A stretch of DNA of 41,145 bases. Source: Lysobacterales bacterium. GTDB taxonomy: Bacteria > Pseudomonadota > Gammaproteobacteria > Xanthomonadales > SZUA-36. Location: positions 1 through 41,145 of the forward strand of contig JBFFUJ010000001.1 of NCBI GenBank assembly GCA_041571375.1, written 5' to 3'. The position numbers and the translations under genes are program-made. The notes beneath the pieces are model-generated. The model worked only from the letters and a program-made list of their open reading frames with translations. It was not told the DNA's origin and made no database searches. Below, piece by piece: positions 27,827 to 28,660 of the stretch. Position 1 is the first letter of the stretch, and each line of letters starts with the position of its first letter.

Positions 27827-28249
27827 TCAGCAGTTGGGTTCAACCGGCTCGGCGTCGGCCTTTTTCTGACAGGTACAGCCGTAGTCACTGCAGCCCATCG
27901 TGTCAGGCATGCAGATATCCTCCATCGCCACGCACTGGCAGGCGCCGGAGCAGGCGCAGTTGCCGCTGTTACATGTGTAACGGGTCGCACCTCCGTCGGA
28001 AGGGCTCGCCAACTTGGCACCCGGCGCGTCCGCGCAGTCGCTGCCACAATCGCGTTCAGCCATCCGCGCGGTTGCGGCCTGGACCTGACGCCGCGTCTGC
28101 ACTGATTCCTGCTCTGAGGCCGGGGCAGTCGCGACGGCCGCCTGAGACCGGGTCGATGCCTGTTGCGCCACGGCGGCCGGACTGACGGTAACCCAGGCCA
28201 GGGCCGCCGCGCCGAAAATGGAGAGAAGTCGCATATTTGTCTTGCTCAT
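27827..28249 (-). CDS. Secreted cysteine-rich protein, unknown family (paralog 1)
   Basis: ATG at 28247..28249 after GAGGAA. Sec-type leader ending AVAQQ. The C-terminal module is CGSDC...YTCNSGNCACSGACQCVAMEDICMPDTMGCSDYGCTC. The stop lies 1 nt from the convergent DUF190 stop. Confidence 0.65.
   Translation of the reverse strand: MSKTNMRLLSIFGAAALAWVTVSPAAVAQQASTRSQAAVATAPASEQESVQTRRQVQAATARMAERDCGSDCADAPGAKLASPSDGGATRYTCNSGNCACSGACQCVAMEDICMPDTMGCSDYGCTCQKKADAEPVEPNC
27869..27893. repeat. Direct DNA repeat copy A, shared by the two Cys-rich genes
   Basis: acaggtacagccgtagtcactgcag matches 28334..28358 at 24 of 25 positions. It encodes the conserved C.DYGCTC end of the module. Confidence 0.8.
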
Positions 28250-28297
28250 CGACGTGTTCCTCGGGACTTTTCGCTTGAATCGCTGCCTGTCTGATTG

Positions 28298-28660
28298 TCA
28301 GCCGCCATCGCCTTCCGGTTCCGGGGCCTGCGCACAGGTACAGCCGTAGTCATTGCAGGTCAGCGTGCCAGGCGCACAGATTTTCTTCATGGCCACGCAA
28401 TCCGCGGCGCCGGCACAGGAGCAGTTTTCACCCGCGCACTCGTAATCCCGCGTGCCGCCTCCCGTCGGCGCGGCGAGACGGGATCCCGCTTCTTCGCAAT
28501 CGTCACCACATTCGGCCCGGGCTGCCGCAGTGATCGCCGACTGGGACGTCACCGCGGTCTTCTTGCCGGCACTCACCGACTGCTGCGCCGTTGCCGAAGG
28601 CAGGCCCATGACGGCCAGAATCACCATCAGACCGATAACTGAAAGGACATTTCGCATCAT
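28298..28660 (-). CDS. Secreted cysteine-rich protein, unknown family (paralog 2)
   Basis: ATG-ATG at 28655..28660 after GGAG. Leader MMRNVLSVIGLMVILAVMGLPSATAQQ. Module CGDDC...YECAGENCSCAGAADCVAMKKICAPGTLTCNDYGCTC aligns with paralog 1 with all 10 Cys conserved. The ORF-track extension to 28816 is rejected. Confidence 0.65.
   Translation of the reverse strand: MMRNVLSVIGLMVILAVMGLPSATAQQSVSAGKKTAVTSQSAITAAARAECGDDCEEAGSRLAAPTGGGTRDYECAGENCSCAGAADCVAMKKICAPGTLTCNDYGCTCAQAPEPEGDGG
28334..28358. repeat. Direct DNA repeat copy B, shared by the two Cys-rich genes
   Basis: acaggtacagccgtagtcattgcag; see 27869..27893. Confidence 0.8.

Follow-up and report, generated by a model that had tools for sequence, protein, structure and literature searches.

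A conserved two-gene cassette of Lysobacterales encodes paralogous, exported mini-proteins of an undescribed cysteine-rich family

We describe here a pair of adjacent genes, termed A and B, in a 41,145-nucleotide stretch of a Lysobacterales genome (contig JBFFUJ010000001.1, positions 1 to 41,145, in the following called the window). They encode small cysteine-rich proteins of a previously undescribed family, and it is well supported that their products are Sec-exported, disulfide-locked mini-domains made from a conserved two-gene cassette. Eukaryotic disulfide-rich mini-proteins, among them defensins, toxins and hormones, have been studied in depth. To our knowledge, descriptions of comparable families from Gram-negative bacteria are few. 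A sequence-only reading of the window had placed two tandem minus-strand genes of 140 and 120 aa side by side, and both lie exactly where it put them:

28298..28660, minus strand: gene B, a 120-aa pre-protein with a predicted Sec leader, an Ala/Ser/Thr/Gln linker, the CGDDC loop, the 8-Cys core and an acidic tail running to ...PEPEGDGG
28250..28297, minus strand: spacer between B and A, 48 nt, which holds the GAGGA Shine-Dalgarno site of gene A
27827..28249, minus strand: gene A, a 140-aa pre-protein with a predicted Sec leader, a linker with a helical segment, the CGSDC loop, the 8-Cys core with two extra Cys, and a tail to EPNC

Orthologues of both genes are found in metagenomes and in metagenome-assembled genomes (MAGs) of Xanthomonadales/Lysobacterales, with 111-141 aa and the same start for gene B and 138-153 aa for gene A. 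Translation starts are supported by Shine-Dalgarno sites read from the sequence, a GGAG 9-12 nt 5' of the gene B start (MMRNV... at 28660) and a GAGGA in the spacer ahead of gene A. An alternative reading of gene B as a 172-aa frame overlaps the upstream gene and finds no support in the homologues, which all begin at the MMR/MK position. Substitutions are strongly biased. Over the 37 codons of the core, A and its L001 orthologue differ by 16 synonymous and 0 non-synonymous changes, the B orthologues by 12-16 synonymous and 4-10 non-synonymous ones, and the synonymous excess is seen in all ten A pairs and all ten B pairs. The A homologue P0008 shares 51% identity with A overall and an identical 37-residue core. 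Taken together, the orthologues, the synonymous-only change in the core and the Shine-Dalgarno sites indicate that genes A and B are real coding sequences and that their core is under extreme purifying selection.

Sequence comparison also shows that the two genes are paralogues, since the proteins align in BLASTP with 38% identity (E 1e-25). The earlier reading had derived a duplication from a 24/25-nt identity (27869-27893 vs 28334-28358); this identity is indeed there, and it is the start of a longer direct repeat of 93 nt with 78% identity (27869-27961 vs 28334-28426), which corresponds to the core-coding part of both genes.

The elements of the two proteins that carry the cysteines, together with the helical segment of A, are the following:

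28334..28444, minus strand: core module of B, Y73-C109, YECAGENCSCAGAADCVAMKKICAPGTLTCNDYGCTC, holding all eight invariant Cys, its predicted helix bearing a basic K-K; delimited by alignments and the DNA repeat
27869..27979, minus strand: core module of A, Y91-C127, YTCNSGNCACSGACQCVAMEDICMPDTMGCSDYGCTC, holding all eight invariant Cys and, specific to A, C104; its predicted helix bears an acidic E-D
28496..28510, minus strand: accessory C-G-D-D-C pair of B (C51, C55)
28034..28048, minus strand: accessory C-G-S-D-C pair of A (C68, C72)
27830..27832, minus strand: codon of the C-terminal Cys140 of A (EPNC end), the putative disulfide partner of C104 (codon 27938-27940)
28061..28111, minus strand: helical segment of A, residues 47-63, a degenerate copy of the motif L-S-x-E-L-Q-R-x-L-E-x-G-(D/N)

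An alignment of 68 diverse sequences defines a family core of about 37-40 residues with eight invariant Cys in the pattern C-x4(5)-C-x-C-x5-C-x6..9-C-x6..8-C-x4-C-x-C, in which Gly, Met, Thr and Gly positions are near-invariant as well. As can be read directly from the sequence, the core is pseudo-symmetric, with two C-x4-C-x-C units (CNSGNCAC and CSDYGCTC) around a central stretch. It always stands at the extreme C-terminus and ends 11-13 residues from the stop codon. Protein A contains 12 Cys (C68, C72, C93, C98, C100, C104, C106, C113, C120, C125, C127, C140) and protein B 10. Ten of them align between A and B, as the sequence-only reading had it; its ten-Cys pattern is incomplete for A, where C104 (inside G-A-C-Q-C) and the C-terminal C140 were missed, and too broad for the family, in which only eight Cys are invariant. 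Likewise, the C-terminal module that had been given as roughly 65 aa is reduced to the 37-40 aa that are conserved. That the Cys pattern would recur in homologues holds true for the eight core positions throughout the alignment. The C-G-x-D-C pair is accessory and is missing in 6 of 17 B-type proteins. Many members, including A orthologues and distant members, carry the helical motif 5' of the module; it is degenerate in the A protein of the window and absent from B.

Among 1.84 billion representative proteins, a search with the family profile returned 52 matches at E<=1e-3, with E values from 5e-29 to 1e-3, and the family makes up about 49 clusters among these representatives. Three of the matches, P0034 (ankyrin), P0052 and P0068, are long repeat proteins that lack the 8-Cys pattern and were discarded as spurious. 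The family had been put forward as unrecognised, and the database searches agree with this view throughout. Neither A nor B has a Pfam match at E<=10, and 65 core sequences gave no meaningful Pfam match. NCBIfam returned only chance-level matches for A and B far under the cut-off, PADLOC and PHROGs returned none, and there was no significant match among PDB sequence profiles or, with Foldseek, among structures of the PDB and BFVD. A DUF6587 match on P0019 (28 bits at a cut-off of 27) extends over signal peptide and linker as far as the first core Cys; it occurs in no other member, hence it was treated as compositional, and a RXLR match on P0025 was set aside on the same grounds. All named homologues are annotated as 'hypothetical protein', among them WP_109260647.1 of Hyphobacterium indicum, and a full-text literature search found no description of such a family.

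Both proteins start with a leader that has a basic start, a hydrophobic stretch and an A-x-A followed by QQ, as read from the sequence rather than by a predictor, and neither a twin-arginine motif nor a lipobox was seen in the two leaders:

28586..28660, minus strand: predicted signal peptide of B, residues 1-25, with signal peptidase I predicted to cut between A-T-A and QQ (...PSATA/QQ, the slash marking the cut)
28166..28249, minus strand: predicted signal peptide of A, residues 1-28, with the predicted cut after A-V-A before QQ (...SPAAVA/QQ)

The Sec-type leader ending in A-x-A-QQ, which the earlier reading had seen on each protein, gains weight from an alignment of 27 close homologues, in which the last residue of the leader is always Ala and the next residue is a Gln with at least 90% conservation (A28 and Q29 in A). 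Similar leaders are also present on the Hyphobacterium and Maricaulis homologues. Export of A and B by the Sec system, through these predicted signal peptides, is thus well supported.

The cysteines are better described as disulfide partners than as metal ligands. Counted over the trimmed mature regions, their number is 8 in 33 sequences, 10 in 24 and 12 in 11, and therefore even in 68 of 68. Upstream of the core, the accessory Cys occur as a C-x3-C pair in 34 family members, are fully absent in the other 34 and are never single. The extra Cys of A behave in the same way: C104 and a Cys in the C-terminal tail occur together in 11 sequences and are both absent in 56, the one exception having a CC pair in the tail only. 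This coupling is also seen in P0029, a distant member. A conserved His was not found anywhere in the family alignment. Even counts and the gain or loss of accessory Cys in pairs favour disulfides over metal clusters, and this pairing, the lack of a conserved His and Sec export to an oxidising compartment favour four disulfides in the core.

For the core, a beta-hairpin / alpha-helix / beta-hairpin fold is predicted. AlphaFold2 with 68 sequences gave a core with pLDDT 85-87 in a beta-beta-alpha-beta-beta arrangement (model numbering: beta 48-50 and 53-56, alpha 59-67, beta 75-77 and 80-85), while linker and upstream helix reached pLDDT 50-56 (about 55 for the helical segment of A). A caveat is that AlphaFold2 on a 76-residue module with 27 sequences gave pLDDT 46, which is uninformative. 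A Foldseek search with the 96-residue model found no match with E<1 in the PDB or BFVD, the model being about half disordered and the method weak for tiny disulfide-rich domains; provisionally, the predicted core corresponds to no known fold. The sole thematically related match with this half-disordered model was a scorpion toxin (1i6f, E 4.7, probability 0.03).

Two known folds invite comparison. With the CS-alpha-beta defensins and scorpion toxins the module shares a small secreted domain, a predicted short helix on a sheet, a C-x-C in the last strand and the precursor layout of signal, spacer and C-terminal Cys-rich domain. The hallmark of CS-alpha-beta proteins is a helix C-x3-C that is bonded to the C-x-C of the last strand. 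This C-x3-C is absent here, where the helix Cys are spaced C-x6-C (C-x-C-x6-C in A); moreover, CS-alpha-beta domains have 6-8 Cys compared to 8-12 in this family, lack the extra N-terminal hairpin and are cationic, whereas A and B are acidic, and the Foldseek similarity of the half-disordered model to 1i6f is non-significant. LDL-receptor class A domains gave matches among the PDB profiles at E 0.16-0.7, which are non-significant, and this identity was rejected. A weak local resemblance (F/Y-x-C-x2-G-x-C ... C-x-G-x2-D-C) exists, however LDL-receptor class A domains have 6 Cys and a D-x-S-D-E calcium cage that is absent in A and B, and the C-terminal half of the module is without counterpart in them.

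When one genome of each GTDB species was scanned for the pattern, 15 loci were recovered, which come from Lysobacterales MAGs, several Hyphobacterium species (some of them cultured), a Maricaulis MAG and other MAGs of Alphaproteobacteria and Pseudomonadota. The order B then A, with a spacer of 45-51 nt, is found in the window and in the loci L001, L004, L005, L006 and L007, and locus L008 has both genes in this same order; the cassette thus ordered recurs in uncultured Lysobacterales. A single gene of ancestral type, with helical motif and module, is present in L009 and the alphaproteobacterial loci; in Hyphobacterium and Maricaulis this single copy stands in conserved housekeeping synteny. 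An all-against-all comparison of the flanking ORFs of 14 loci revealed no neighbour family common across lineages; neighbours were shared only inside Hyphobacterium and Maricaulis, as a result of vertical synteny.

Alignment of the upstream regions suggests that the cassette carries its own promoter, as a -10-like box, CTATAC(T/C)T or CTATAAT, is shared by five loci (the window, L001, L004, L005 and L007), where it precedes gene B by about 60-70 nt:

28727..28734, minus strand: promoter -10-like box, CTATACCT, lying 68 nt ahead of where gene B starts, called from conservation alone

A consensus promoter scan found no promoter, and a terminator scan of the 48-nt spacer between B and A found no terminator-like site. 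By eye, no metal-regulator box was recognised; a formal scan was not made.

Tandem pairs of the module arose twice independently, once as the B-A cassette and once in a divergent clade. In the latter (locus L027), two 8-Cys proteins of 121 and 120 aa are encoded in tandem at 246-611 and 671-1033; both keep the helical motif, and there is no ED/KK split between them. In two further cases the module meets Hcp-like proteins. P0039 (L023, 8001-8876) combines a signal peptide, an Hcp domain (PF05638), the helical motif and the module at its C-terminus, and in L026 (759-3477) an operon consists of an Hcp-like gene with a signal peptide, the gene of a secreted 364-aa protein of unassigned role and, as the second gene after the Hcp-like one, P0063; an ECF sigma factor gene adjoins this operon. 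Type VI secretion system (T6SS) genes were absent near both the P0039 and P0063 loci. Evolved Hcp proteins of T6SS, which bear C-terminal effectors, resemble these cases in that P0039 has the module at the C-terminus of an Hcp domain and P0063 lies near an Hcp-like gene; in contrast, the Hcp-like proteins here carry Sec signal peptides with no T6SS genes nearby, and A and B are without an Hcp domain. Two cases are too few to interpret. Directly upstream of the fusion, L023 also encodes (7446-7817) a secreted 123-aa protein with paired Cys (CNGKDDDC ... DPCPSLPC), which is unrelated in sequence to the module.

What A and B do can be approached from their charge and conservation. Counted from their residues, both mature proteins are acidic, their net charge being about -5 (A) and -6 (B). 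The predicted helix has a charge of -2 (-1 in one case) in 10 of 10 A proteins, with M-E-D-I-C or a close variant, and of +1 or +2 in 17 of 17 B proteins, with M-K-K/R-I-C. After the last Cys, most A orthologues have K-(Q/K)-K, while B has A-(Q/E)-A and then its acidic tail. These opposite charges on helix and post-Cys segment point to a charge-complementary heterodimer. We tentatively favour, at somewhat less than even chance, an A/B heterodimer that serves as extracytoplasmic binding module and whose conserved partner belongs to the producer. A and B would form a self-contained two-gene operon of paralogous exported mini-proteins. After export their Cys would be oxidised to disulfides, presumably by the Dsb system, as parity and paired gain and loss of the Cys suggest. 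Four invariant bonds would hold the core and the accessory C-x3-C loop would add one, and in A only, a staple between C104 in the helix and C140 as last residue would tie the tail onto the domain. A and B would then pair, with complementary charges, to a stable extracytoplasmic binder of a conserved component of the producer's envelope or surroundings and not to a diversifying weapon, which is the weakest step of the proposal. A self-directed role is suggested by the conserved residues between the Cys despite diverged linkers, the single copy in housekeeping synteny, the acidity and the lack of adjacent immunity, exporter or modifying genes. Several observations weigh against this proposal. 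The heterodimer is read from charge patterns alone, the independent tandem pair of L027 shows no charge complementarity and lineages with one copy do without a partner. Tight packing of a tiny domain could also account for the extreme conservation, and the fusion of the module to Sec-exported Hcp-like proteins, or its presence in an operon with them, hints at carrier-and-cargo or toxin-like biology.

The sequence-only reading had kept open a toxin or a signal. This is possible, although the invariant residues between the Cys, the acidic charge and the missing immunity and export genes weaken it. In such a scenario A and B would be secreted antimicrobial or toxin peptides, either defensin-like or a two-peptide bacteriocin, made as precursors of signal, pro-region and mature part and acting on competitors or hosts. 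The layout of signal peptide, helical 'pro' segment and C-terminal Cys-rich module is indeed that of eukaryotic toxin and defensin precursors, the predicted core has a helix on a sheet and a C-x-C in the last strand, and the best relevant fold match in the PDB, though non-significant, is a scorpion toxin. The module is moreover fused to an Hcp-like domain in one case and in an operon with another, and tandem pairs evolved twice. However, toxin, defensin and inhibitor families usually diversify between their Cys, and typical membrane-active peptides are unlike the acidic A and B. The near-frozen residues between the Cys (16 synonymous, 0 non-synonymous changes) and the acidic charge of both mature proteins thus weigh against a diversifying cationic toxin. 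Hallmarks of two-peptide or class II bacteriocins are missing, since the leaders are of the Sec and not of the double-glycine type and no immunity gene or ABC exporter is a conserved neighbour across the 14 loci. A conserved adjacent modifying enzyme, as for RiPPs, was likewise not seen in the compared loci. In Maricaulales the gene is single-copy in its conserved synteny, and Sec signal peptides are present on the Hcp-like partners too, which stand apart from T6SS genes. We regard a toxin as unlikely, though less so than the other alternatives.

Of the two options that the earlier reading had weighed for the Cys, the disulfide-bonded protein is favoured by the even Cys number in all 68 sequences and the metallothionein-like domain is disfavoured. 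The latter would be a periplasmic Cu/Zn/Cd thiolate cluster in which the Cys are ligands. Very high Cys density (8 in about 37 residues) with C-x-C motifs, which is shared with metallothioneins such as bacterial SmtA/BmtA, fits to this idea, as do one near-invariant Met and the acidity of A and B; given the Sec-type leader, the metal would have to be loaded after export. In metal-thiolate proteins the Cys are independent ligands without pairing constraint, often with His as co-ligands and in a reducing compartment. A and B differ from this, with even and paired Cys, no conserved His and export to an oxidising compartment. Their predicted core has regular secondary structure and hydrophobic residues, unlike metallothioneins, no metal-resistance or metal-regulated neighbour is conserved, and no metallothionein match appeared in Pfam or NCBIfam at E<=10 or, in Pfam, among the 65 core sequences. 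We therefore consider a metal cluster improbable.

Equally speculative, with only a slim chance in our estimate, is the idea that A and B represent a new bacterial disulfide-rich fold that is released as an A/B heterodimeric extracellular factor, a counterpart of the eukaryotic Cys-rich hormones and toxins with signal, pro and mature parts, and that in some lineages Sec-exported Hcp-like rings would carry it. A still lower probability is assigned to a tight-binding inhibitor of exogenous proteases or lysozyme, in the style of knottin, Kazal or WAP domains, that protects the envelope. The domain is small, rigid, disulfide-rich and exported, and with four to six disulfides in 40-75 residues high stability is to be expected; however, there is no match to any inhibitor family and no hypervariable reactive-site loop, nor is a protease gene consistently adjacent, an M23 peptidase adjoining the cassette in one locus only, L004. 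Finally, chance ORFs or decaying duplicates are effectively refuted. Spurious ORFs do abound here on either strand, as the DNA is high in GC, and the antisense ORFs are the usual by-product of 65% G+C; orthologues with frame-specific conservation and synonymous-only substitutions, Shine-Dalgarno sites and a conserved cassette order speak against this reading.

The family is rare, strongly conserved and unannotated, and it has no significant match to solved structures or to predicted viral ones. Its occurrence in cultured Hyphobacterium strains, such as H. vulgare KCTC 52487 and H. indicum 2ED5, makes it experimentally testable. If the predicted fold and the pairing of A and B hold true, the cassette would provide a new stable scaffold and a new component of the envelope or secretome of marine proteobacteria; should its role prove mundane, it adds one more domain of unknown function.

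In the window, the cassette is surrounded by crcB and a DUF190 gene (convergent with gene A), a META-domain lipoprotein, a short-chain dehydrogenase (SDR), a Rieske oxygenase and two glycogen genes, malQ and glgX; none of them moves together with A and B. The META-domain lipoprotein upstream lacks conservation next to the cassette, and the adjacency to crcB and DUF190 is specific to this genome. A radical SAM gene (17702-19864) is located 8 kb from the cassette and has no counterpart near it in the other loci compared. The crcB-DUF190 operon has its stop at 27825, 1 nt from the stop of gene A at 27827, and a terminator-like hairpin with a T-run (27844-27858, plus strand) inside the 3' end of gene A would serve this convergent operon. 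Further away, a 237-aa thioredoxin-domain protein with an N-terminal extension is encoded at 40265-40978 on the minus strand, 12 kb from the cassette and too far to be linked with it. The plus strand at 11143-12705 encodes an HMG-CoA reductase with its N-terminal domain, an enzyme of the mevalonate pathway in a gammaproteobacterial genome of Lysobacterales type. A minus-strand ORF of 2084 aa (33656-39910) combines Enolase_C (aa 322-612, E 5e-47) with a PPDK_N ATP-grasp-like domain (aa 1614-1808); this combination of domains is unusual, and the multidomain protein looks real, as the overlapping plus-strand ORFs are without Pfam match.

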